Below the pieces are notes generated by a model that was not told where the DNA came from, made no database searches, and saw nothing but the letters and a program-made list of their open reading frames with translations. Below are positions 33,210-49,723 of a DNA stretch of 64,000 nucleotides, piece after piece; the stretch's first letter is position 1, and every line of letters begins with the position of its first letter. Source of the DNA: Microcoleus sp. (GTDB taxonomy: Bacteria > Cyanobacteriota > Cyanobacteriia > Cyanobacteriales > Microcoleaceae). The position numbers were made by a program, and so were the translations under genes. Where the stretch lies: positions 96,001-160,000 of the forward strand of contig JAYFMW010000006.1 in NCBI GenBank assembly GCA_042408215.1. Reading direction: 5' to 3'.

Positions 33210-33485
33210 ATGGAATTTGAGTGGAATCCCGAAAAAGCAGCACTTAACCTTCAGAAACATGGTGTTTTGTTTACAGAGGCTGCAACGGTGTTTAATGATC
33301 CATTGTCTACAACCTTTCCCGATCCCGATCATTCTCTCGGCGAGAGCCGCTACGTTATCATAGGTCTATCTCGATTTGGACAATTGTTGGTGGTTTCACA
33401 CACAGATCGAGGAGAAAAGATCCGGATTATCAGTGTTCGGAAAGCCACTCGCCAGGAACAGAGGTTTTATGAAGAGGGAATTTGA
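33210..33485 (+). CDS. BrnT family toxin
   Basis: MEFEWNPEKAALNLQKHGV.F..A ... IRIISVRKA. Confidence 0.9.
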   Translation: MEFEWNPEKAALNLQKHGVLFTEAATVFNDPLSTTFPDPDHSLGESRYVIIGLSRFGQLLVVSHTDRGEKIRIISVRKATRQEQRFYEEGI

Positions 33486-33759
33486 GAACGAAATGGAAGA
33501 TGAGCTACGTTCAGAGTATGACTTCTCCAAGCTACAGGGAGGAGTGCGGGGGAAATATATTGAGCGATACCGTTCTGGTACAAACCTCGTACTTTTAGAT
33601 CCTGATGTTGCTCAGGCTTTTCCAAATGATGAAGCCGTCAATGAAGCATTAAGGTTATTGCTTAAAATTGCTCAGCGACAGCAGCCTAACAACCCTCCGG
33701 CGGGTGAGCTTGGTCGTTACGCCGTCTACGTTACAGGTGATAGCGAGGGAGAGGAATAG
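33469..33759 (+). CDS. Cognate BrnA-like antitoxin; C-terminus reads through an attC remnant
   Basis: EDELRSEYDFSKLQGGVRGKY ... VNEALRLL; overlaps the toxin gene. Confidence 0.8.
   Translation: MKREFENEMEDELRSEYDFSKLQGGVRGKYIERYRSGTNLVLLDPDVAQAFPNDEAVNEALRLLLKIAQRQQPNNPPAGELGRYAVYVTGDSEGEE
33684..33722 (+). other. Internally deleted attC-like site
   Basis: GCCTAACAA ... GCGGGTGAGCTTGGTC-GTTACGC. Confidence 0.55.
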
Positions 33760-33881
33760 TCATGGAAATAGACTAGGATTTTAGTCAAGGTAAGCGAAGG
33801 GCGATCGAATTTTAATTCTGCTTGGTGGTCAAATCTTGGTACTTTTGCTCTAAACTTGGCTCATGTGCTAGATTTAAGTTC

Positions 33882-34169
33882 ATGAAGTTTGAGTGGGACG
33901 AGCGTAAAAACCAAAGCAACCTTGCAAAGCATGGGTTTGACTTCGCTGATGCTTTTCGTATCTTCAACCTACCGATGGTTGTCGAATTAGATGAGCGGGA
34001 TGATTATGGTGAAGATCGATGTATCGCTATTGGTTTACTTGATGGACGAGTTGTAGTTGTTGTCTACACGGAGCCTGATGAGGAAACAGTTCGCATTATC
34101 TCATTACGAAAGTCACTGTCTTATGAACGCAAACGCTATGAACAATACCTCAAAAACCGACTGGGCTAG
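33882..34169 (+). CDS. BrnT family toxin
   Basis: MKFEWDERKNQSNLAKHGFDF ... DYGEDR ... VRIISLRK. Confidence 0.9.
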   Translation: MKFEWDERKNQSNLAKHGFDFADAFRIFNLPMVVELDERDDYGEDRCIAIGLLDGRVVVVVYTEPDEETVRIISLRKSLSYERKRYEQYLKNRLG

Positions 34170-34416
34170 AATCGACGCAATGAGCGATGAAGATATCGAT
34201 ACTTCCGATATTCCACCACTATCGGAGGAGTTCTTTACTAGAGCGCAATTACGAATGCCTCAGTCAGCTATTACTATGCCAGTTCAAGTCGATCCTGAAA
34301 CATTTGCTTGGTTTCAGGCACAAGGAGAAAGTGCCCAACAGCAAATGTCTGTAGCACTTAGAATTTATGCAGATGCACACAAAACCTATCCTGCATTCGT
34401 AGCAAAGCCAGCATAA
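34123..34416 (+). CDS. BrnA family antitoxin
   Basis: SKTDWARIDAMSDEDIDTSDIP ... VDPETFAWF. Confidence 0.85.
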   Translation: MNANAMNNTSKTDWARIDAMSDEDIDTSDIPPLSEEFFTRAQLRMPQSAITMPVQVDPETFAWFQAQGESAQQQMSVALRIYADAHKTYPAFVAKPA

Positions 34417-34501
34417 CGCTCGGCAGGCTAACATTAAAGCCCCAACAAGCAGAACAGGCTGTGGCAGTAGTTTGAAAACGATCGTTTTTTGTCATAACGT
34501 A

Positions 34502-34531
34502 TTGACATTGTAAATACATTTTACCTATACT
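34502..34531 (+). promoter_or_regulatory. Promoter of the third TA pair with a palindromic operator-like spacer
   Basis: TTGACA-N18-TATACT; spacer contains GTAAA-tacat-TTTAC; ATG 7 nt after the -10 box, so probably near-leaderless. Confidence 0.65.
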
Positions 34532-34538
34532 AGGGAGT

Positions 34539-34835
34539 ATGAATGTATACTTCGTGCTCAATGGCATTACCTTTGTCTGGGACGAGGGAAAAGCGCGGAT
34601 TAATCCCACAAATCATGACGGGGTTACTTTTCAACAAGCTGCTGAATCCTTCTTTGACCCATTTCTAGTAGTCGTTGATGCCAGCCGGAATCAGGAAGCG
34701 CGTGATGCTGTGATTGGGCTAGATAGTCGGTGGAATCTACTGTATGTGGTTCATATTGAGCGTGAAGAGAATGTCATTCGGATTATTTCAGCACGTAAAG
34801 CAACTCGTCAGGAGAGGGCAGAGTATGAAAATTGA
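34539..34835 (+). CDS. BrnT family toxin
   Basis: FVWDEGKARIN..HDGVTFQQA ... IRIISARKAT. Confidence 0.9.
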   Translation: MNVYFVLNGITFVWDEGKARINPTNHDGVTFQQAAESFFDPFLVVVDASRNQEARDAVIGLDSRWNLLYVVHIEREENVIRIISARKATRQERAEYEN

Positions 34836-35118
34836 AGCATTAAAGCAGCGATTAGACCGAAACCGTCCAATGACTAGCGTAACGATCCGTATGCCCGAAG
34901 ATGTTGTGGAAGACCTAAAAAAAGTTGCACCATTGTTGGGTTTTTCGGGTTATCAGCCATTAATTCGTGCTTATATCGGTCAAGGTTTGCGGGTTGATTT
35001 AGAACGATTTGAGAGCGATACAGTGACAGCCTTAGTAGCAAGTTTGAAGCGTCGAGGTATCAGCGATGCAGTGATTAATGAGGCATTAAACGAAGTCGTT
35101 CATGCTAAATCCTGTTAA
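34825..35118 (+). CDS. CopG/RHH-type antitoxin
   Basis: MTSVTIRMPEDVVEDLKKVA..GYQPLIRAYI. Confidence 0.8.
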   Translation: MKIEALKQRLDRNRPMTSVTIRMPEDVVEDLKKVAPLLGFSGYQPLIRAYIGQGLRVDLERFESDTVTALVASLKRRGISDAVINEALNEVVHAKSC

Positions 35119-36672: not shown

Positions 36673-37846
36673 TTAAGCAAACTTAATCTTCAAATAATCA
36701 TCCTCCATCTTCGCACCCGGAAGGTTGTAGCGCCGCTAAAGCTTGCGGCAAAACCATATTGCGGCGGTGATTCCCAATCCGAACATTCAACTCATCTCCT
36801 GTTTTGCTCAACTGAATCTGATCCTTAGCAATTCCCGGCAAGTACAGTTCTAGAACATATTGATTATTGTCCTGAACAATCCTAATCGTATTTTCTTTGT
36901 AATATATTTGACTAGGATCTTCGTCTTTGTAAAGCGTTTCTTTCAAGCGCTCCAAAGCTGGCAAACCGCACATTTCTTCGGAATAAAGCGGCACTTCTTT
37001 CACGGGCAATGGTCGGAAATTCTCGTGAATTTCCTGACGATACTGCTCCTGGCTTTCTTTCCACCGTTTGAAAAATGGGTCAGTTACTTCTTCGGGAATA
37101 ATGCGATTTGCTACTATTAAATCTGTGGCTACATTGTACAAACTCAAATAGGCATGAGCGCGCAGAGACTCTTTAATTACCATTTTTTCAGGATTAGTAA
37201 CTAACCTTACCGAAGTGACAGTATTGTCAGTTAAAATCTTTTCCAAAGCCTCAATTTGTTCGTAAAATTCATAAGGTGCATCCATCACCTCTTTGTCTGG
37301 CAAAGAAAAACCCGCAATTGGTCTAAAAATAGGTTCCACTAAAGGTCTCAGGGCGGCGGATATGCCTTGCAGCGGCTTGTAAAATTTTCTCATGTACCAG
37401 CCGCCAACTTCCGGCAAACTTAGCAGTCTCAATGCTGTTCCAGTGGGAGCTGAATCGATAATTAAAACATCAAATTCGCCTTCGTCGTAATGCCGCTTCA
37501 TTCGCACTAAACCGAAGATTTCATCCATTCCTGGAAGTATGGCCAATTCTTCAGCTTGAACGCCTTCGAGTCCCTGGGCGCGCAAGACTTGAGTAATGTA
37601 GCGCTTAACTGCTCCCCAATTGCCTTCTAATTCCCTGAGAGCGTCTAATTCTGCTCCCCACAAATTCGGTTTCACCAGTCGGGAATCGTGTCCGAGTTCC
37701 ATGTCGAAGCTGTCGGCTAGGGAGTGGGCGGGATCGGTGCTTAGCACTAGGGTTTTGTATCCCAATTCGGCACATCGCAGCCCTGTGGCGGCGGCTACGG
37801 ATGTTTTACCGACGCCGCCTTTTCCGGTCATTAATATTAAGCGCAT
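36673..37846 (-). CDS. ArsA/GET3-family ATPase with HSP20-like C-terminus; +1 frameshift near 36717
   Basis: [22 protein letters not shown]; removing one base restores the ending [16 protein letters not shown]. Confidence 0.9.
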
Positions 37847-39245: not shown

Positions 39246-39580
39246 AGAAACCGGGTTTCTGTGATATCTCTGATTTTCACCAAGAATCTCTCATCAGAAA
39301 CCCGGTTTCTTTGGCCCTGCGTAAGTCCTAATTTATTTAGACTTGGGATGATCTTGACACACTTTTAACTTTTGTTTTTCCTCTGGACGAGTAACGAAAT
39401 AATCTTCGCCCCAACAGTCAGAAACCGGGTTTCTCATAGATATCTAGTTTTAGCCAACAATCTCTAAGCAGAAACCCGGTTTCTTTCGTCCTGCGTAAGT
39501 CCTAATTTATTTAGACTTGGAATGATCTTGACACACTTTTAACTTTTGTTTTTCCTCTGGACGAGTAACGAAATAATCTT
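39246..39580. repeat. Tandem duplication of about 175 bp containing a palindromic element and the 3' end of the CHAT gene
   Basis: gaaaccgggtttc...gaaacccggtttc...ctgcgtaagtcctaatttatttagacttgg...aaataatctt occurs twice. Confidence 0.85.
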
Positions 39581-42500
39581 TTAACCAGTCGCACCCTGTC
39601 GCTAATAGTTCATCTAAGTTCTGATTGCGCCAAATCATCACTTTTATACCGCCAGTGGCTATATATTTCCCATCTGGGCTAAATTGGATTAACCCTTGAC
39701 CTTGTTCGGGAACAGTATATTTAGCAATTAGTTTCCCGGCTATACTCCAGATGCTTAATTCATTGGGATAACCTAAAAAAGCAATTTGCTGACTATCAGG
39801 GCTAAAAGTCAAGGCATTTGGAGATTGTTGTAATTTAATTTGATTAATCAATTTGCCAGAAAAGTCCCATATCTTGATTGAATAATCTGTACCAGTTGTT
39901 GCTATTAATTTGCTGTCTGGACTAAAATAGACATCCATAATACCTGCTTTATTATCTAAGTCAATAAGTTTGTGGCTCTTTATATTCCTTAAGTGTAATT
40001 CTTTTCCGGGCAGATACCAGGTTGCTAAATATTTACTATCAGGACTAAATTTTGCAGTGTTTCCTAGCATGAGATCGGTTATATCAACAAATATAAATTT
40101 TTCACGAACAATATTTTTTTCTTCTATCTTATCATTGCGGGATTTTACTTTTATTTTAACAGAAGTACCTGCTTCCCCCTTGAGAAAATCATAAGCTTTC
40201 CATGCCTTACCTTTGAAATCAGACACTTGATGACCATTTATTTCTAAAATTATATCACCAGTCCTTAAGCCAGCTTTCATGGCTGTGGAATTTTGCCAAA
40301 CATCAAGTATTTTTACTCCGTAACCACGTTTAAAACCTTCAGTAAATGTTTCTTCTACAGAATGACCTAAATAAATTGCTATCATTGAATGTTCTTTGCC
40401 ATTTGCTGATGATTTATTATTAACATCTAACGGATTAATTAAATTTCCCGAAGCATCCCAAAGTTTAGCCATACCTGATGTGATAGTAAGAATATATTCA
40501 CCATTTGGACTAACTACAACTCGATGAATTATTTCAGGAAGAGAATCATGTTTTAATTGCTTGACTTGCTGAGTTGATAAATCCCAGAGACGGAGAGGAT
40601 TAGACGACTCTCTACCCAATTTGCCAAAGTTGTCAAAATTAAATCCCTTTGTGGCTATCTTGCTGCCATCAAAACTAGAACTATAAGTTTTATCGCCTAA
40701 ATAATTTCCAAAAGACAACGCCTGTAAGACTCTTTCTCCATTGCTTACAGTAGTTTTAACTTCTGAAATCAAGTTTCCTGTTAAATCATATTTTTTCACA
40801 GCTTCTTTAGTGACAAAGATGATAAATTTACCGTCAGGAGATACATTTGCAAAACTAAAATCGTCCACCATATTAATACTTTTAACTTTTGTTTCTTGCC
40901 AGTCCCAAACATCTAATACTCCATTATAAACATCTTGAATCAAAAGCTTTTCACCATCTGCACTATACTGTAAGTTTATCATTGTTGGATATTTTACACC
41001 ATTTACTCCTTCTTTTTCATAATTCTTAGGTAATTCTGTAACATTCTTAGGTAATTCTGTAACATAAGGTTGGGCTATACTCAATAATTTGAGTCCGTCA
41101 GTCCCTGAGATAAAAATTGTTTGACCATCAAGACTATAGCTTAAGCCAGAACCAAAAAGCGAACTTATTGTCAGTTGGTCAACCAGTTTTCCTGATCTAG
41201 CATCATATAATTTGACGGCTCCTTCACCTGGCATGACTGTAGCAATTTTTTGACCATCAGGACTAAAACTAACATCACCATTAGAAAAAAGTAATCCTGA
41301 AAAATTGAAATCTGCAATTTTTGGGCCTGATAAATCCCAAAGTCTAGCTATGAGGACAGTTGTTTGAGATGAATCAACATCTACCCCTAAAGTCAAAACT
41401 CGCTGTCCATCTTGACTCATCACTATTTTGGTAACTTGATTAGTATTAGCTTTAAATTCTCGGATTTTTTGCATGGTTTTTAAGTTCCAAAATTGCACCA
41501 TCCCAACAGCATCTCCTATCACAACTTCTTCACCATTAGCAGTAAATCCTAAACTTTGTATAGTCCCACCTCCGTTGGGTTTTAATTCCCTAAGTTTCCG
41601 ACCAGCCAAGTCAAAAAATATTATTTGAGTAGCAAATGCTGATACAGCAATATATTTACTATCTGGACTAAACTTAACAATATTAGCCCCTATTAAAGAT
41701 TGTATTTTAGCTATTTGTTTGCCAGTAAAATCCCAAATATATAAATTTCCTTCGTCATTAATAGTAACAATATATTTACCATTAGGACTCATCGCTAAAT
41801 CCTGAATACCTTGATTCTCTGGTTCATCCCATTCAGTAACTTTCTGACCTGATAAATTCCAAATTATCACTTTACCCCTCTTGGCGCTCAAGGAAACAAT
41901 TTGCTGACCGTCTGGAGTAATAATCACTTTGCCAATGACATTATCACTTTTAAACTCATTTTTTTCTCGAATATTGCTCGTAATAGTCTGTAAAGCCAAA
42001 AAAGGGCTATTAGTAGGATAATCTGCTAATGATTCACCATCTTTTACTAATTGTTTCAGCTTATATCCGGCTTCCAGTGCAATCTTTAAAGCATTGATTC
42101 CACCTTCTCCCGACTGAAATTGACTCAAAGCTAAATTGCCTAAACTATCAGTTTCACTAATTAGGCTTTGTCGTTCAGCCCGTTGCCATTGCCACACCGC
42201 CCCCACAGCAAAAATTGAAACAGCTAATAAACCACTCGTTAGACCTAAAATAGTACGGCGACGATTGCGATCGCGCAACCCCAACCCCAACTGAATAAAC
42301 TCCCCTTCCGCCTTACTTACATCCTCCAACCGTTGCAATAAATACCCCTCCGCCTCTCCCAAAGGTGCCCCTTGCAACAAATAACCCTCCTTATTCTCAT
42401 TCCTTTCCCACTCCTGAAACGCCACCTTTAACCGCTTTTTCCATCTCAAAAAAGTATCATTTTCCTCAATCCATTTCCTCAAATCAGGCCATGCTTTAAT

Positions 42501-44735
42501 CAAAGCCTCATGCACAATTTCCACCGTTTCTATCTCAGTCGTTTCATTTCGATTACTCACCACCAAACGTGCCGTCGCCAAATGCGTTACCAAATCCCAA
42601 TTTTCTTCCCCCACCTCAGCGCGAGTCGCCAGTTGGCGCGTGTATTCCGTCCCTTCTCCCGGCGACACCAACTTCATAAAAATCTGCTTTGTCCGTTCCT
42701 TATCCCCCTCTTTCAGCGCATCATATACCCCTTCCGCGTGTCGGCAAAGAGCCTTTTCTACCCCACCAATTTCATCATATTTCAGACGATTCAGCAAACC
42801 ATTTTCCTGCTGTTTCCAAAGTTCCGTAAGCGCAAATTCCAACAATGGCAAATTACCCTGTTCCTCACCAACTTCATTGAGAATATGTTCTGTCAATCCC
42901 GCTTCCAGATAGACATTTCTTTTCTTAGCAGGTTCCTCAATTGCCGCTTGCAATTCGGTTCTCGTCATCCCGCCGATAAATTCCGGTTTCCATCTGTCTA
43001 ACTGTTCCCTAAAAGGATTATATTCTATTGCCTGCCCCAAAAAATCAGCCCGCAGAGTAATCACCAATCTGAAGGATGAAAAATTTTGTACTGCATCCAA
43101 TAAACAATCTAAAAATTGCCGACTTTTCTGATTATGGTAAGTGTAAATTTCCTCAAATTGGTCAATTACTAACAGAAAACGCCGACTGCTACCGATGCTT
43201 CTTACCACATCGGACAAAGTGCGATTCCCTTCTTGCAAATCTATCGCCAGTTGGTTAATTTCATCCCCATTAACCTCAGCCACTCCCTCACTTTTACCCG
43301 TTTCTAATTGCGCCACAGGTGACAGCAGCGCTTTCGCCAAATTATCAAAAGGAGTAGATTCCGGGCGCAAATTAGCAATTAACCAGTTTTCTTGCTGACG
43401 CAAACTAGGAATCAAACCTGCCAATACTACCGAAGATTTCCCACTTCCAGAAGCACCAATTACAGCTACCAGTTTTTTAGTTTCTACAGCTTTTACAAGC
43501 TGATTAGTAAAAGTTTCTCGCCCAAAAAATAAGGCTGCATCTTTCTCCTGAAAAGCCGATAAACCCTGATAAGGATTAGGGGGAATTACTAAATCGTGCC
43601 AACGTAGCGGAATTTCCGCCGGATTTTGGCATAAAACAGGCAACCAACTGACACAGGGAACATCACTTTCTAAGATTTGTAACCGTTTTCGACTGTCACG
43701 GATAGCGGTAGATAAGGATAAACCGTGAGTATAAGCTTCTAGGAAATATTGGAGAAATTTAGGAGCAATTGCTATCGGTAAAATCTCCCGCATCACAATA
43801 ATTTGCGGCAAATATAAATCTTCGCCTTCTGCTAATTGATAGGCAATTCCTAACCCATCACAAGCATTAAAAATTGCTAATTTTAAACCATTATTTATAG
43901 CTCTTTTGAGATGATTCTTAATTTCATCAATTGTCAACCAGTCTTGAGAATTAATTTTAATCTTGCCGATACTTCCATCACTCTCTGTTTTTCCATGACC
44001 CGCAAAAAATAAAATATCCCATCTTTGCTCCCATAAAGGCGCATCTAAATCACTCCGTTGAGTTTCTCGTTGAGTTTCTTTTTTTAACCAACAAAATTCA
44101 GCATCAGGAATTAATTTCTGAATGACTGCTTCATCCGCATCAGTTCCCGCATTATCTCCCAAAATGACTAAAATTTTAACTTTCTCTTTTTTCCCTGAAT
44201 TTCCTGAAGTTTTAACCTGTTTAAACTTAGGAGAAGCTAAAACAATTTCCGCGTTAGGAATATGCTCTAATAAATTCCATGCACACCAAGGTAAACGCCG
44301 CAACCAATGATTTTCTGTAGCTAATAAAATTCTGGTGCTGGTTGAGTCTTGTAAATGATTAAGGAGTAAATTGACTATTGGTTGAAAATCGGGCGATTGT
44401 AACCAATCATTCAGATTTTTTGCTAATAACTTAGCCGCCTTTCTACAAGCTTCAAAAGCTTTATTTTTTACTTCTTCTAGATCGTCAGGACTTTTTACAG
44501 GATCTTTTTTGGCTGTTAAACGGCTCGGCCAAAATTCTTCTGTCTTGTTATATAAACGTCGCCAATGACGATACTGTTCCAATAGTTCAGGATGTGGGGG
44601 TAACTTTCCTGATGCACCCGCGATCGCTAAAATGACTTGATTTTTTGTTATTCCTCCATCTTGCCGCACTTCTGCCTGTACGACAAAACCCTTGTCAAAT
44701 TCCCCACTAATATTGAGAGTCACTAACTTTTCCAT
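39507..44735 (-). CDS. CHAT (caspase-like) protease - STAND NTPase - TM - WD40 protein with inserted PDZ domain
   Basis: FFAGHG and FNACDG dyad; PYQGLSAF, GASGSGKS, VIDQFEE; TM helix ILGLTSGLLAVSIFAVGAVW; FSPD repeats; AMKAGLRTGDIILEING PDZ. Confidence 0.9.
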   Translation of the reverse strand: MEKLVTLNISGEFDKGFVVQAEVRQDGGITKNQVILAIAGASGKLPPHPELLEQYRHWRRLYNKTEEFWPSRLTAKKDPVKSPDDLEEVKNKAFEACRKAAKLLAKNLNDWLQSPDFQPIVNLLLNHLQDSTSTRILLATENHWLRRLPWCAWNLLEHIPNAEIVLASPKFKQVKTSGNSGKKEKVKILVILGDNAGTDADEAVIQKLIPDAEFCWLKKETQRETQRSDLDAPLWEQRWDILFFAGHGKTESDGSIGKIKINSQDWLTIDEIKNHLKRAINNGLKLAIFNACDGLGIAYQLAEGEDLYLPQIIVMREILPIAIAPKFLQYFLEAYTHGLSLSTAIRDSRKRLQILESDVPCVSWLPVLCQNPAEIPLRWHDLVIPPNPYQGLSAFQEKDAALFFGRETFTNQLVKAVETKKLVAVIGASGSGKSSVVLAGLIPSLRQQENWLIANLRPESTPFDNLAKALLSPVAQLETGKSEGVAEVNGDEINQLAIDLQEGNRTLSDVVRSIGSSRRFLLVIDQFEEIYTYHNQKSRQFLDCLLDAVQNFSSFRLVITLRADFLGQAIEYNPFREQLDRWKPEFIGGMTRTELQAAIEEPAKKRNVYLEAGLTEHILNEVGEEQGNLPLLEFALTELWKQQENGLLNRLKYDEIGGVEKALCRHAEGVYDALKEGDKERTKQIFMKLVSPGEGTEYTRQLATRAEVGEENWDLVTHLATARLVVSNRNETTEIETVEIVHEALIKAWPDLRKWIEENDTFLRWKKRLKVAFQEWERNENKEGYLLQGAPLGEAEGYLLQRLEDVSKAEGEFIQLGLGLRDRNRRRTILGLTSGLLAVSIFAVGAVWQWQRAERQSLISETDSLGNLALSQFQSGEGGINALKIALEAGYKLKQLVKDGESLADYPTNSPFLALQTITSNIREKNEFKSDNVIGKVIITPDGQQIVSLSAKRGKVIIWNLSGQKVTEWDEPENQGIQDLAMSPNGKYIVTINDEGNLYIWDFTGKQIAKIQSLIGANIVKFSPDSKYIAVSAFATQIIFFDLAGRKLRELKPNGGGTIQSLGFTANGEEVVIGDAVGMVQFWNLKTMQKIREFKANTNQVTKIVMSQDGQRVLTLGVDVDSSQTTVLIARLWDLSGPKIADFNFSGLLFSNGDVSFSPDGQKIATVMPGEGAVKLYDARSGKLVDQLTISSLFGSGLSYSLDGQTIFISGTDGLKLLSIAQPYVTELPKNVTELPKNYEKEGVNGVKYPTMINLQYSADGEKLLIQDVYNGVLDVWDWQETKVKSINMVDDFSFANVSPDGKFIIFVTKEAVKKYDLTGNLISEVKTTVSNGERVLQALSFGNYLGDKTYSSSFDGSKIATKGFNFDNFGKLGRESSNPLRLWDLSTQQVKQLKHDSLPEIIHRVVVSPNGEYILTITSGMAKLWDASGNLINPLDVNNKSSANGKEHSMIAIYLGHSVEETFTEGFKRGYGVKILDVWQNSTAMKAGLRTGDIILEINGHQVSDFKGKAWKAYDFLKGEAGTSVKIKVKSRNDKIEEKNIVREKFIFVDITDLMLGNTAKFSPDSKYLATWYLPGKELHLRNIKSHKLIDLDNKAGIMDVYFSPDSKLIATTGTDYSIKIWDFSGKLINQIKLQQSPNALTFSPDSQQIAFLGYPNELSIWSIAGKLIAKYTVPEQGQGLIQFSPDGKYIATGGIKVMIWRNQNLDELLATGCDWLKDYFVTRPEEKQKLKVCQDHSKSK

Positions 44736-44799
44736 AAAAATCCCCGATTTTATGAATTGCCAACTGGATCAATATTGAACTTGTTTGAAATTTATCATT

Positions 44800-44900
44800 A
44801 GGACTTATGCAAAGAAACCGGGTTTCTATGAAAATCGTTCGTTTCCCAACTAGATATCTACAAAGAAACCCGGTTTCTGCCCTCAGCGTGCGTAAGTCCT
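44800..44900. mobile_element. MITE-like element AGGACTTA(T/C)GC...GCGTAAGTCCT
   Basis: Inverted ends with an internal gaaaccgggtttc/gaaacccggtttc palindrome; relatives at about 37956, 39246, 39421 and 48488. Confidence 0.7.
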
Positions 44901-44996
44901 GTATCATATTTCTCAATGGGGCAACTATACCACATTCATTACCCAAGTTGCCTCTCGGTTTACAAATCGTCACAAATGCCCCAAAAGCCATCGGGA

Positions 44997-46022
44997 TTAA
45001 ATTACAAAATCTTCTGTTACTACCACATCGCCCAAAACTAATTGTACTGAAAATTCTTCTCCTACTTCCCCTTCAAATTGACATCGCATGAAAACATCAG
45101 CACTTCTAGCTATCACCTCTTGAAACACTTCATTTTCACTTAAAACAAGCAGTTTCAAACTGGGAGGTAGATAGATATCATTGCCAGTTGGATAAACTCG
45201 CAAAGTTATTTCTACACTAGAGGAATCATCATTTTCACGGCTTAAATTAATCAGTAAGACTACAGAATGACTTAACAAATCTGCTCGCAAATCAATTAAT
45301 TTTCCCCGTTCAAGTTTTTGAGTCCTTGCAGTAGCTTGTAACTGTTGGGGATTTAATAATTCTGTTACGGCTTGCCATCCTGTGGTAAAAGTATTGTCAA
45401 ACCATTGACTAAAATTCACTCGTTCTTTGTTTGGAACAACCTGCACGTCCAAAACAGGGACTCCCAACCTTTTAGAAAGTACCCCTTCTCTAAACAAAAC
45501 TTCAATTTGTTCGCATGATGACCGAGAACCTTGCCAATGTATAATTAGACTCCCTCTCTCAATTTTTTGTATTTTCATCTGATTAGCTCCTAAAATTTGC
45601 TTCATTTTTTCTTCCAAGGTTCTTAAGATTTCTTCTGAAACCTCAACATCGCAAGTCATAACTAGAAGGGTTTCTTCCTTCTCTTTTACATCTTCGCTTT
45701 TGCGATAGCCTTTATTGACAAAAAGAATGATCGGATCTCTCCAATTTTTAATTTGACCGCCAGTTAATCTTTCGATAGTCTTATATAAACCGCTTTGTGT
45801 GATTTTAACTCTTGTAGTTTCTACGGCATCATAAAGCTGATCAGACATTTGTATTGGCTCAATACCAGAGAGCAATAAACATAAATATTGTTTTTCATAG
45901 TCTCCGATACCTTTACCATTATTTAACCTCCTGTGTCTCTCTTCCAAATCATTAAACAACTGCTTAATTTTCCATGTCCGAGCAGCCTCTTGACAACAGT
46001 CTGGTAATTCTTGGGATAACAT
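44997..46022 (-). CDS. DUF1822 family protein with N-terminal HTH-like domain
   Basis: EKQYLCLLLSG.EP.QMSDQL HTH-like segment; KIERGS middle domain; VNFSQWF..GWQ, RVYP..YLPPSLKL, GEEFSVQLVLGD..VTEDFVI. Confidence 0.8.
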   Translation of the reverse strand: MLSQELPDCCQEAARTWKIKQLFNDLEERHRRLNNGKGIGDYEKQYLCLLLSGIEPIQMSDQLYDAVETTRVKITQSGLYKTIERLTGGQIKNWRDPIILFVNKGYRKSEDVKEKEETLLVMTCDVEVSEEILRTLEEKMKQILGANQMKIQKIERGSLIIHWQGSRSSCEQIEVLFREGVLSKRLGVPVLDVQVVPNKERVNFSQWFDNTFTTGWQAVTELLNPQQLQATARTQKLERGKLIDLRADLLSHSVVLLINLSRENDDSSSVEITLRVYPTGNDIYLPPSLKLLVLSENEVFQEVIARSADVFMRCQFEGEVGEEFSVQLVLGDVVVTEDFVI

Positions 46023-46073
46023 AATTTTTTGTTCCTCATATTTATGTATCCGTTAATCATAGCATACCGATCG

Positions 46074-46207
46074 TTAACGGGCATTAAAATTTTATTAACA
46101 GTCATATTAATTGCTTCATGTTCTAATCAGGTCAGTGAAGCAAAGCAAGAAGCTATTCTTTAACGAGCGTTAAGGATTTTATTAATGCTCATATTAATTG
46201 CTTCATG
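46074..46207. promoter_or_regulatory. Two direct repeats of 47-48 bp in the divergent intergenic region (candidate operators/promoters)
   Basis: 46074-46120 and 46160-46207 share ttaacg.gc.ttaa..ttttattaa and an identical tcatattaattgcttcatg. Confidence 0.65.
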
Positions 46208-46280
46208 GCATAACCATGTTAGTCGTGACGATCCCTGATTTTCACAAAACTTATGAAACCAACAAAAGGAGACATTTTCT

Positions 46281-46598
46281 ATGTGGAACTGGATTAAAAA
46301 TTTATGGACCAGTGCAAAGAACTTAGTAGCCGCAATTTTTTGGGCTTTTATGGAATGGATTCTCTTCTTAATTGAAGTAGTTTATATCGCTTTCATAACG
46401 TCTGTGATATTGACTTACTTTCCATACGCTTACCTGCTTTACTTCATGTTCTATGTGCTTGATGGTGTGGCAGTTGTCGAAAGCTGGAACCCTCGTGAAT
46501 CACAAGGACGCTCGATAATTAGCAAGCTTGAACCAGTAACTTCTGGAGTTACTCAACCAAGCCGAGAGAAGGCTACTGTGTTACAAGCAACTAGATAA
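46281..46598 (+). CDS. Small membrane protein
   Basis: AAGGAG RBS; amphipathic N-terminus and hydrophobic helices. Confidence 0.7.
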   Translation: MWNWIKNLWTSAKNLVAAIFWAFMEWILFLIEVVYIAFITSVILTYFPYAYLLYFMFYVLDGVAVVESWNPRESQGRSIISKLEPVTSGVTQPSREKATVLQATR

Positions 46599-46652
46599 AT
46601 GACAGTCTTCTTAAACGATCAATATCTACTTGTAAAAAAGGAGTAAAGAATC

Positions 46653-47222
46653 ATGCCACGCACGAGTAAAAGTCAGAAGATTGTTCTGAACCTCACCTTA
46701 GAATCAGACCACCCAGATAGCAAGTTAAAGCAAATGGACATCATCGGTGTCCCCGGTCAAAATCAAAATGGTAAGAACATTCTCAGTGACACGGTATTTT
46801 GCTTTTTGGATGATACGATAGGCCGTCCGATCTTTGCTGCTAGTCGGCAGATTCCTAAGCTGGATTGGCAAAAACTTACAGTCTGGCTATGTGCAAAAGA
46901 TGAAGATTCTCTAGGATATCAAGTTCCAACAATCGATGACCGAGACTTAGAGATGAAATCAAACATTCCTGAATCCAACCTGAAATTAATCTATGTCTTA
47001 GACAATGATTTGAAGGGGAATGAATATCGACGGTGGAAGAAAACATCTGAGGATATTTTTACACCGCTATTCAGGAAGTTTGTTCCGCCCCCTCAGTTAC
47101 CCAGTTCTTTTTCGTTTAACCCCTTTGGTTCCTTCATAGAATCTTTGGATTCTCGGATAGATCCTTACGCCAAGATGAAGCGAGAGCTATTTTTCGATGC
47201 CTTAGTCATTCAAATTGATTAA
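46653..47222 (+). CDS. Hypothetical protein
   Basis: AAGGAG RBS; 189-aa ORF in operon context. Confidence 0.7.
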   Translation: MPRTSKSQKIVLNLTLESDHPDSKLKQMDIIGVPGQNQNGKNILSDTVFCFLDDTIGRPIFAASRQIPKLDWQKLTVWLCAKDEDSLGYQVPTIDDRDLEMKSNIPESNLKLIYVLDNDLKGNEYRRWKKTSEDIFTPLFRKFVPPPQLPSSFSFNPFGSFIESLDSRIDPYAKMKRELFFDALVIQID

Positions 47223-47299
47223 TGCAAAAATTTGTCCAAAAAGTAGGGACATAGCAGTGCTGTGTTCCTACTATCCAAACTACCTAAAAACAAAAAACT

Positions 47300-48331
47300 A
47301 TGCCAAGACCTGACAAGCTCAACGGATTTTTGAAGGCTACTGCTGAACTTCATTCTCTTAATGGGAAAAGCCATTTTAGCCCAGCCGACGAGGAAAAAGA
47401 GCCTGAAACTCTGAATAAATCTTCAGAGCCACCTATCGATCTAACAGCTTACTTGAGAAAGCCAAAATATTCTCTGGAGAGTTTTATCTTTCCTACAGAA
47501 AAAGCTCAACTTCAAGTTAAGAGAGTTTTGGCTGAGATTACATATCATGACCTGATTTACACAACTTGGGGGATGGGTGAAAAACATCCAACAGATGTTG
47601 GACTGTCAATCAATTGCTATGGACCTTCTGGCACGGGAAAAAGTATGCTGCTTGAAGTGATCGCCCACAGCTTAGGATTACAGGTTTTGGAAGTTCCCTC
47701 AACCGCATCTAAATTTGTAGGTGTCACTGAGCAGATCACTCAGGAAATTTTTGCCTTTGCGACAATCCATAACGCATTTATAGTTTGGAATGAAGCGGAC
47801 AGGGATTTTGGTAAACGGCTGGAGCAAGTGAGTCAATCAGCCGATGCAGGAGTTAATTCTGCTCGCAGTATTTTGCTTGATCAACTCTCTTCTTATAAGG
47901 GTGTTATTGGCTTAACTACCAATTTAGTGCATAACTATGATTCAGCTTTTGTTAGTCGGATTCGTTTTGAGATTCAACTTGATTTACCAGATGCAGAAGC
48001 ACGGGCTAAAATTTGGCAAGCTCAGATTCCGAATCAGTTGCCTCTTGATGAATCAGTAAACTTTACGCAACTAGCTGCACAGTTTGATGAGATTTCAGGA
48101 CGGGATATTAAGAAAGCTGTTTTGAATGCTGTAGCAAGTGCCGCAAGTGAAGACAAGCTAGACATTGAGAAGCGCGTTACCCAGTCTCACTTTATAGAGG
48201 CTATGGAGGAAGTAATTGCAGGCAAAAAAGCTGCTGAAAAGGGGGAACTGAAATTAACACCTGTCACGGAGAAGGTTGAGCTACCACCTCAACCATCCAT
48301 TGAATCTAAACCGCCAGCCGAAGCTGTTTAG
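47300..48331 (+). CDS. AAA+ ATPase with atypical Walker B
   Basis: GPSGTGKS; SKFVG.TEQ; IVWNEAD; LTTN..DSAFVSRI; SGRDIK. Confidence 0.88.
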   Translation: MPRPDKLNGFLKATAELHSLNGKSHFSPADEEKEPETLNKSSEPPIDLTAYLRKPKYSLESFIFPTEKAQLQVKRVLAEITYHDLIYTTWGMGEKHPTDVGLSINCYGPSGTGKSMLLEVIAHSLGLQVLEVPSTASKFVGVTEQITQEIFAFATIHNAFIVWNEADRDFGKRLEQVSQSADAGVNSARSILLDQLSSYKGVIGLTTNLVHNYDSAFVSRIRFEIQLDLPDAEARAKIWQAQIPNQLPLDESVNFTQLAAQFDEISGRDIKKAVLNAVASAASEDKLDIEKRVTQSHFIEAMEEVIAGKKAAEKGELKLTPVTEKVELPPQPSIESKPPAEAV

Positions 48332-48645
48332 GAGCAGTCTCAACCTCCAGAATTTACAACATAAACGTTGTTGCAGTAGCTGCACAAGTAAGTGGTTGCT
48401 GTCGGGGCCTTGATTTGTTTGCTGTACTTTAAATTTTAGTAGCAAGCATATTTTCAATTCTGTTGTCTTCTCCCATTTCTAAGAATCAGGACTTACGTTT
48501 ATGGGGCTAGAAACCGGGTTTCTTTCTTCTCCTAGAAACCGGGTTTTTTGCGTAAGTCCTGAGAGTTGAAAAAGCTCTGCTCAATACCACTGTTGATATC
48601 GACCTGTTACGGGTCGATTTTTTATTTCTAAAAAACGCATAATTT

Positions 48646-49107: not shown

Positions 49108-49723
49108 ATGATAGACCTCTACACTTTTACCACACCCAATGGTCGCAAAGTCTCCATCATGCTCGAAGAAATAGGCTTACCCTACAACGTGCACGTCATA
49201 GACATTAGAAAAAACGACCAATTTAGCCCAGAATTCATCGCCATCAACCCGAATAGCAAAATTCCCGCCATAGTCGATCGCGATAATGGCATTACCGTCT
49301 TCGAGTCTGGCGCAATCCTGATCTATCTTGCCGAAAAAATAGGCAGATTTCTACCCACCGACAAACAAAAATACTTTCAAGTCTATCGAATGGCTGATGT
49401 TTCAAATGGCCAGCGTCGGGCCAATGTTCGGTCAACTCAACCACTTCAAACGCTTTGCACCAGAACCAATTCCCTATGCAATTCAACGCTACGAAAAAGA
49501 AACCCTGCGACTGTACGGAGTATTAGACAATCAACTAGCAAAATACGAATACATCTGCGGCGACTATTCAATTGCCGATATTGCTACCTATCCCTGGGTT
49601 GCCATTTATGAATTTCAAGGATTAACCCTCGACAACCATCCCCACCTCAAACGCTGGGTAGAAACCTTGCAAAAGCGTCCAGCAGTACAGCGCGGCATGG
49701 CAATTCCGGCTGCACAAAAATAA
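49108..49723 (+). CDS. Glutathione S-transferase (YfcG/Nu-like), with a +1 frameshift near 49384
   Basis: [23 protein letters not shown], then [22 protein letters not shown]. Confidence 0.9.

Follow-up and report, generated by a model that had tools for sequence, protein, structure and literature searches.

Can a caspase-like receptor protease of a cyanobacterium pass its signal to the genes next door, and by which route? This question is raised by five genes in a 64,000-nucleotide stretch of Microcoleus sp. DNA (hereafter the window; contig JAYFMW010000006.1 of assembly GCA_042408215.1, positions 96,001 to 160,000). A gene for a helix-turn-helix (HTH)-TRADD-N-DUF1822 protein is followed by a gene for a receptor that combines an EACC2-like head, a caspase-fold CHAT protease, an nSTAND1 NTPase, a transmembrane (TM) helix and a WD40/PDZ part, and three further genes, which we call SMALL, UNK and AAA, lie divergently across a gap (Table 1). 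An earlier note on this DNA had proposed that an extracytoplasmic signal activates the protease, which cleaves the DUF1822 protein and changes HTH control of the divergent operon. Comparison with related loci gives good support to the predicted wiring between HTH, operator and cassette; cutting, trigger and effector action are steps that we infer. As a whole, we tentatively read the locus as a single-locus transcription switch of the EACC2-caspase family that is gated by a protease and whose output can be replaced.

HTH class, gap palindrome and divergent cassette

All five open reading frames (ORFs) and a duplicated motif in the gap were recovered at the places given by the earlier note. The motif copies (46089-46136 and 46176-46223) were 81% identical over 48 nt with a spacing of 87, and two exact palindromes were found at 46075 and 46161, versus 0.000 expected from 200 shuffles. 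The whole 48-nt repeat pattern was present only in the window and L027/L028 among 80 loci, indicating that the duplication is not a conserved feature. In addition, the gap of L001, the nearest named relative of the locus (Microcoleus sp. K1-B1), holds a single palindrome copy, suggesting that the duplication is recent and dispensable, so that a duplicated motif is not needed.

The N-terminal 110 residues of the HTH protein alone matched no Pfam family. In the family of this HTH, 5 of 17 members matched GerE and 5 of 17 matched Sigma70_r4_2, and the family profile weakly found LuxR/NarL-type HTH structures (best E 7e-4), so the label "HTH-like" holds. Profile searches placed DUF1822 (PF08852) at residues 200-340 (E 4.8e-21) and TRADD-like_N (PF20694) at residues 133-194 (E 5.5e-8); both parts named in the earlier note were found, and the TRADD-N between them had been overlooked. 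LuxR/GerE-like HTHs bind palindromes as dimers.

The motif TAAYG-NN-CRTTA was derived from the window and L063, and the hidden Markov model of the HTH class was built independently of it. L063 has a 53-55% identical HTH, a different cassette, three exact palindromes and its own 71-nt duplication, indicating that the motif follows the HTH and not the cassette. With at most one mismatch and within 300 nt upstream, the motif was found at 10 of 11 DUF1822 genes with this HTH class versus 0 of 74 others (86 loci, 85 of them with a DUF1822 gene), and 0.01-0.1 motif was expected per shuffled region. When the window, L027, L001 and L063 were left out, it was found at 7 of 8 genes, or in 4 of 5 lineages, L068 being the miss. 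It was located mostly 49-62 nt from the start codon, and was absent from the 20 TRADD-N loci with another or no HTH as well as from 8 promoters of a second HTH class. A looser form defined afterwards, TAAY-N4-RTTA, was found at 5 of the 9 UNK operons whose stand-alone HTH belongs to this class versus 0 of 8 with an HTH of another class; fused HTHs without an UNK operon have the palindrome as well. TAAY-N4-RTTA is thus the likely candidate operator of this HTH, and the tie between HTH and gap DNA suspected earlier is borne out as a co-occurrence of HTH class and palindrome. That the HTH binds the palindrome and controls the operon appears quite probable from these comparisons. The palindrome was not enriched across the 7.36-Mb genome (13 strict and 77 broad matches), so no wider regulon was seen. 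A terminator-like hairpin at 46165-46190 overlaps palindrome copy 2 (0.2 expected).

Divergent small ORFs were present in 13 of the 14 closest loci, and the exception, L065, has no CHAT behind it. Depending on the locus, the cassette encodes SMALL-UNK-AAA, proteins of DUF697-like or DUF4189 type, His-rich peptides, a small beta protein whose N-terminus is signal-like in some cases, or hydrophobic peptides rich in glycine, a kind of peptide that is often membrane-active. At the window's own chromosomal site, the congener locus L058 carries a Cro/XRE HTH and a cassette of a His-rich hydrophobic peptide plus the beta protein, and its DUF1822 C-terminal part (DUF1822-C), CHAT and nSTAND are 91-94% identical to those of the window. 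Cassette and HTH are swapped as one, even at this site. The L001 cassette starts with a His-rich peptide 81% identical to that of a paralogue on contig C30, continues with SMALL-UNK-AAA and has a distant beta protein (E 3e-6) as its last member. Two UNK operons without CHAT (L019 and L024) likewise close with the beta protein, indicating that the two kinds of cassette draw on one gene pool. At least three HTH classes are represented among the HTH-TRADD-N-DUF1822 fusions that have divergent cassettes.

At the C30 locus (L057, G000:C30 92560-102135), a close paralogue of the pair has an XRE-type HTH, and its divergent cassette consists of five small genes, including His-rich and glycine-rich peptides and a 77-aa beta protein; AT-rich TTGAATTCAA-type repeats in its promoter region may be sites of its HTH. 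At the more distant EACC2 loci L068, L071, L072, L074, L075, L077, L079 and L134, a single short ORF of 60-105 aa, whose N-terminus is hydrophobic and signal-like, lies divergently upstream of DUF1822, possibly encoding secreted ligands or receptor outputs.

The small membrane protein, unknown protein and AAA+ ATPase described earlier were all present. SMALL has an amphipathic-then-hydrophobic helix (residues 2-50; 49 residues) and a small beta sheet, and its family has 1-4 paralogues per operon, around UNK. Each of the three genes is single-copy in the genome and under purifying selection (dN/dS, the nonsynonymous to synonymous substitution ratio, 0.13-0.6 against 4 relatives each, one comparison being saturated). 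The UNK model (predicted local distance difference test score 86) found no match in a fold search of the PDB (best VIA Z 2.8, Foldseek E 0.52), which proves neither a new fold nor a function; SMALL matched there just as a plain long helix (Z ~6), its beta part barely covered. ESM Atlas gave sub-threshold or unnamed clusters only, and PHROGs nothing for UNK, the window SMALL or the HTH; a weak tape-measure match of a SMALL paralogue in PHROGs (E 7e-4) was rejected as helix composition.

UNK relatives numbered 134 by a word-based search (41 at the 50% cluster level), and those with a named source were all cyanobacterial; UNK was present in 8 of 401 genomes of the phylum and 5 of 79 of the genus. 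Tabulation gave 42 UNK loci, or 37 by hand count after duplicates L028, L032, L044, L049 and L050 were dropped. AAA followed UNK in 32 of these 37; of the rest, four are cut off by a contig edge, and in L026 only a broken remnant is left. A divergent HTH gene was found in 20 of the 27 loci with enough upstream DNA, 9 being stand-alone HTHs of the window's class and 8 belonging to the second class (stand-alone or fused to NB-ARC). All five genes, with the HTH fused to TRADD-N-DUF1822 and CHAT-STAND behind it, were found in 3 of the 27, namely the window, L027 and L001, and are thus not the fixed neighbourhood assumed earlier. The comparisons indicate that SMALL-UNK-AAA is a conserved cyanobacterial module, usually with its own HTH. 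Among UNK operons, L023, L031, L033, L053 and L056 have a divergent HTH-NB-ARC NTPase (~450 aa) that lacks sensor repeats, and L025 (G106:C3) is a SMALL-SMALL-UNK-AAA operon on a 22.8-kb contig, whose UNK protein is also named as plasmid-borne in Synechococcus elongatus PCC 11801, a tractable host.

The AAA protein has Walker A at 108, pore loop KFVG, a second region of homology and, as a correction to the earlier note, a Walker B of WNEAD with Asn for the usual Asp. WNEAD was found in one subclade (7 loci, duplicates included), FDEAD in 27 and WDEAD in 1. Such a replacement should lower hydrolysis. The protein belongs to the classical p97/VAT-like clade, and its closest long relatives are ~700-aa WHD-AAA proteins (PF22977 plus AAA; 32-38% identity). 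Unlike these, it is a single AAA domain without the WHD, has SMALL and UNK as constant neighbours, lies in an operon without tail genes, and carries the Walker B Asn in this subclade. The payload-loading ATPases Pvc15/Afp15 are said to be linked to WHD-AAA ATPases.

The receptor, its partner and a candidate cut site

Profiles and alignment confirmed the receptor architecture given in the earlier note. CHAT (PF12770) matched residues 161-357 (E 1e-10), with the catalytic His in FAGHG and Cys in NACDG (conserved in 59 and 57 of 59 aligned relatives, respectively), nSTAND1 (PF20703) matched residues 388-783 (E 2e-116; Walker A at residue 427), and PDZ matched residues 1480-1531. No solved structure matched the CHAT profile. 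The ~170-aa region before CHAT, conserved in the 59 aligned relatives, gave no EACC2 profile match in Pfam and fits the description of EACC2, to which we assign it by context. The hydrophobic helix has 5 K/R before and 2 after, and a clear TM helix after a basic cluster was found in 10 of 12 receptors (weak in L070). In L070, the CHAT-STAND and HTH-TRADD-N-DUF1822 genes converge tail to tail, so that the former does not follow the latter.

The left pair is, by its architecture, a new member of the EACC2-caspase system predicted computationally by Kaur, Iyer, Burroughs and Aravind in 2021 (PMC8195603), and is not the undescribed pair that the earlier note took it for. They described neighbourhoods of two genes, one encoding a TRADD-N protein and the other an EACC2-caspase protein of variable C-terminus, including versions with an extracytoplasmic function (ECF) sigma factor and DUF1822, and row 560 of supplement file 3 lists this architecture (PMC8195603). 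As in that system, the window has an upstream gene with a variable N-terminal HTH, TRADD-N and DUF1822, and a second gene with a CHAT caspase, an intact dyad and a variable C-terminus (STAND, PDZ, repeats, TM); the row differs in having no TM. Section 9 and supplement file 3 of that paper contain no divergent cassette, operator, cut site or SMALL-UNK-AAA, and none of the 9 "AAA" rows in that file is of this kind (PMC8195603). Among the papers listed for EACC2, only this one was relevant, and a literature search on the cassettes, which covered few subscription papers, found nothing. Within that literature, the palindrome-HTH link, the cassette exchange, the SMALL-UNK-AAA module, and the DUF1822-C/CHAT block with its Arg loop were not found in print.

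This block emerged from identities between loci. Compared with L027, the window was 98% identical in the HTH, 95% in TRADD-N and 90-98% in nSTAND, versus 51% in DUF1822-C, 31% in EACC2 and 48% in CHAT. Against the C30 paralogue the pattern was reversed (HTH 18%, TRADD-N 25%; DUF1822-C 88%, EACC2 76%, CHAT 90%). Across 12 nSTAND1 loci, DUF1822-C identity correlated (Pearson) with EACC2 at 0.88, CHAT 0.88, nSTAND 0.48, TRADD-N 0.30 and HTH 0.29, and over 59 loci with EACC2 and CHAT at 0.71 and 0.68, in correlations that exclude L070 and use locus pairs that are not independent. The block thus spans the gene boundary and yet breaks inside a gene, a pattern expected of binding partners. DUF1822-C would, on these grounds, probably dock on EACC2/CHAT and keep the HTH off DNA.

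In 47 of 59 proteins, a loop of variable length before the last DUF1822 domain carries an Arg, in most cases within FR(S/N/T/K). At CHAT position 321, which may be equivalent to the Asp through which separase binds Arg, 45 of 59 relatives have Asp and the window has Ile. In the 59 pairs, both Arg and Asp were present in 41 and neither in 8, with Arg without Asp in 6 and Asp without Arg in 4. In a quick tree of CHAT, a clade of 12 that includes the window lacks the Asp, and 8 of its members have Trp/Phe for the Arg; all 8 such cases sit in that clade, and the window keeps its Arg233. Separase binds its P1 Arg via a conserved Asp (PMC10317155). The Arg233 loop is a lead, a candidate substrate site, for which the evidence in the window cuts both ways.

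A precedent for such a cut is HetF of Anabaena PCC 7120, a membrane CHAT protease with a cytoplasmic catalytic domain and periplasmic repeats, which cuts the regulator PatU3 after Arg117 in TNYR/S, with Tyr before and Ser after (PMC9457339). The HetF-PatU3-HetZ system differs in that the parts of that source describing it give no STAND, and the substrate and transcription factor are separate proteins (PMC9457339). DdvA-DdvS of Myxococcus xanthus likewise has a membrane CHAT-containing regulator that governs transcription of a defence island; unlike here, its CHAT is periplasmic with an incomplete site, output runs via an ECF sigma factor, and no STAND appears in the parts of the source describing it (PMC11506125).

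The proposed circuit and its alternatives

In the proposed circuit, the HTH-TRADD-N-DUF1822 protein would dock through DUF1822-C on the receptor's EACC2/CHAT head, with the HTH kept off DNA. A ligand on WD40/PDZ would make nSTAND1 oligomerise and activate CHAT, which would cut the exposed loop around Arg233 and release HTH-TRADD-N. The HTH dimer would then bind TAAY-N4-RTTA between the divergent genes, regulate itself and switch on the cassette, whose small membrane-active proteins (SMALL, with UNK as a partner and the AAA ring as an assembly or removal motor) would act on the cell's own envelope, either containing damage or sacrificing the cell in the filament. We give release of HTH-TRADD-N by a CHAT cut near Arg233 a little less than an even chance, and rate a membrane-active output that acts on the own envelope about as highly. 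Of the earlier interpretation, the HTH-palindrome co-occurrence, the near-constant divergent cassette of close relatives, the DUF1822-C/EACC2/CHAT block and the Arg loop speak for it, whereas the undescribed pair and the fixed five genes did not hold up, and the extracytoplasmic signal is in doubt.

Several points weigh against this circuit. Of the 74 motif-negative loci, 54 lack TRADD-N and have mostly coding DNA upstream, the TRADD-N loci and second-class promoters given above being the better matched controls, and a sigma-70 promoter scan of the gap found 1 site versus 1.7 expected by chance. DUF1822-C and EACC2 are adjacent on the DNA, and co-transfer alone could explain part of their correlation. 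The window CHAT has Ile321 and its partner nevertheless keeps Arg233, which leaves the cut site in the window uncertain, and the covariation of Asp and Arg in one clade amounts to one event. In 17 of the 27 informative operon loci there is a divergent HTH but no CHAT partner, and just 3 have all five genes, among them L027, a near relative that occupies the same site; the operon therefore does not need the protease. As support for operon-CHAT coupling we counted P0247 (MEM9271408.1), in which CHAT is fused directly to UNK, and L020 and L030, in which the UNK operon lies downstream of a DUF1822/CHAT cluster in the same direction. Finally, the L001 receptor has no TM helix yet keeps a WD40/PDZ sensor 70-87% identical to that of the window, which makes an extracytoplasmic signal doubtful; the signal may lie outside the cell, but the five-gene form does not demand it.

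Control of the divergent operon without partner proteolysis, by allosteric hold and release or with CHAT cutting only itself, is unlikely but survives best among the alternatives. Operator and cassette evidence fits it equally, the missing Asp at position 321 of the window CHAT favours it, and Kaur et al. proposed autopeptidase activation of the receptor, favouring self-cleavage over partner cleavage (PMC8195603). On the other hand, the loop Arg resembles a substrate site: most DUF1822 proteins keep it within otherwise variable sequence, and Trp/Phe replaces it only in the clade in which CHAT has lost the Asp. HetF also provides a precedent (PMC9457339).

An anti-phage abortive system resembling nucleotide-binding leucine-rich repeat (NLR) receptors, in which a phage protein that WD40 detects in the cytoplasm would lead the cassette to kill the infected cell, is distinctly unlikely; it concerns the trigger and is compatible with the favoured wiring, so that defence is one option among several. 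The STAND-caspase architecture, patchy presence and a TM-less variant are consistent with it, as is the speed at which the WD40/PDZ part is exchanged (18-41% identity in receptors that are 90% identical elsewhere). The AAA protein weakly matched IetA and TRIP13 in PADLOC, but this is generic ATPase similarity far under family level (NCBIfam IteA 53 bits versus a cut-off of 510). No PADLOC model matched SMALL, UNK or the HTH protein, and the locus did not qualify as IetAS, CBASS TRIP13 or Avs. A TM helix with a basic N-side cluster, as in most receptors, would place the sensor outside, and the flanks read held housekeeping and toxin-antitoxin-type genes and no known defence system.

Hitch-hiking, in which the operon's own HTH recombined in frame onto a DUF1822 gene of a variable island, HTH and operon keeping their former function and the receptor being functionally uncoupled from them, is quite improbable: the operon usually has a free HTH (17 of 27), modules are shuffled freely and the low-GC island is accessory, with UNK in few genomes of the genus, but HTH-TRADD-N-DUF1822 fusions recur with cassettes across HTH classes, L001 keeps the five-gene order at another site with operon proteins 70-90% identical, and the palindrome also occurs with fused HTHs that lack the UNK operon.

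Extending the protease-gated switch to caspase-gated, NLR-like receptor-to-gene circuits of filamentous cyanobacteria in general is speculative and rather unlikely as a whole. In such circuits the sensor, the STAND, the protease with its substrate domain, and the HTH with operator and cassette would be exchanged independently, one cut would free a tethered factor, co-change of pocket and cut site would insulate paralogues, and the outputs, membrane-active peptides or a so far undescribed AAA-driven membrane-remodelling machine that includes a protein of unmatched fold, would seal or sacrifice cells of the filament.

Genome setting and meaning

The five genes form a low-GC stretch (0.34-0.42 versus ~0.45) in a genome with six DUF1822/CHAT loci. 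The island is flanked by an arsA-like gene with a DUF7689 pair on one side and a DUF2358 gene on the other, and the flanking genes are cyanobacterial.

Table 1. Positions of the genes, domains and candidate sites of the locus in the window.
Feature	Position	Strand	Remarks
Receptor protease gene, EACC2-CHAT(caspase-fold)-nSTAND1-TM-WD40/PDZ/WD40	39507..44735	-	1742 aa; ORF and domain profiles
WD40 propellers with inserted PDZ (40143-40298)	39606..41960	-	Variable sensor part
Single predicted TM helix	42195..42251	-	Residues 829-847
nSTAND1 NTPase	42387..43574	-	Walker A GASGSGKSS, Walker B LLVIDQFEE
CHAT protease domain	43581..44225	-	His247/Cys292 intact, Ile321
N-terminal alpha+beta region preceding CHAT	44226..44735	-	EACC2 by position and context
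HTH-TRADD-N-DUF1822 gene	44997..46022	-	341 aa; ORF and domain profiles; HTH (LuxR/GerE-like) residues 1-110, TRADD-N 133-194, DUF1822 C-terminal part 200-341
Candidate cut site after Arg233	45324-45326	-	Conserved loop Arg in DUF1822 protein
Divergent gap	46023-46280		258 bp, between the 341-aa gene and SMALL
Candidate operator copy 1 (TAACGGGCATTA)	46075..46086	palindromic	53 nt upstream of HTH start
Candidate operator copy 2 (TAACGAGCGTTA)	46161..46172	palindromic	Belongs to the duplication of 86-87 nt period
SMALL	46281..46598	+	105 aa; no Pfam name for family
UNK	46653..47222	+	189 aa, soluble alpha/beta, no family
AAA ATPase gene	47300..48331	+	343 aa; single-ring, classical clade

Around the island and between the gene pair, dispersed AGAAACC(G/C)GGTTTCT palindromic repeats were found at 39246-39580, 44813-44901 and 48509-48561, the first being a 174-nt tandem duplication that overlaps the last codons of the receptor gene. 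Several small toxin-antitoxin-like gene pairs (BrnT/BrnA-like by appearance only) lie in a row at 33210-35118. The arsA-like ATPase (36698-37846) has an atypical tail, and a glutathione S-transferase (49108-49723) is split over two frames and intact with 201 aa in L058; each may reflect a frameshift or sequence error.

An RNA run covered 5% of words, with short 90-99% pieces only, and expression of the locus was not evidenced by the sequencing runs searched. In a mat metagenome run (X7), searched over 42000-48400, contig depth over the DUF1822-C/CHAT/nSTAND part was ~tenfold above that of HTH and operon, and one 1662-nt contig matched 45034-45410 only; this fits variants with other N-termini, depth not being equal to copy number.

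EACC2-caspase systems are widespread in multicellular cyanobacteria, the TRADD-N/DUF1822 profile being matched in 118 of 401 genomes of the order, and are known from one computational paper within the literature searched. The locus offers candidates for the operator, the cut site and, in the adjacent genes, the regulon, the pieces that had been missing for testing, and brings to light an unnamed conserved module, SMALL-UNK-AAA. The comparisons suggest that sensors of this type turn on sets of small membrane proteins that can replace one another. If the proposed circuit is true, a caspase would free a transcription factor downstream of a STAND receptor in a bacterium, and the locus would give a handle on the roles of cyanobacterial caspase-like proteins besides HetF.

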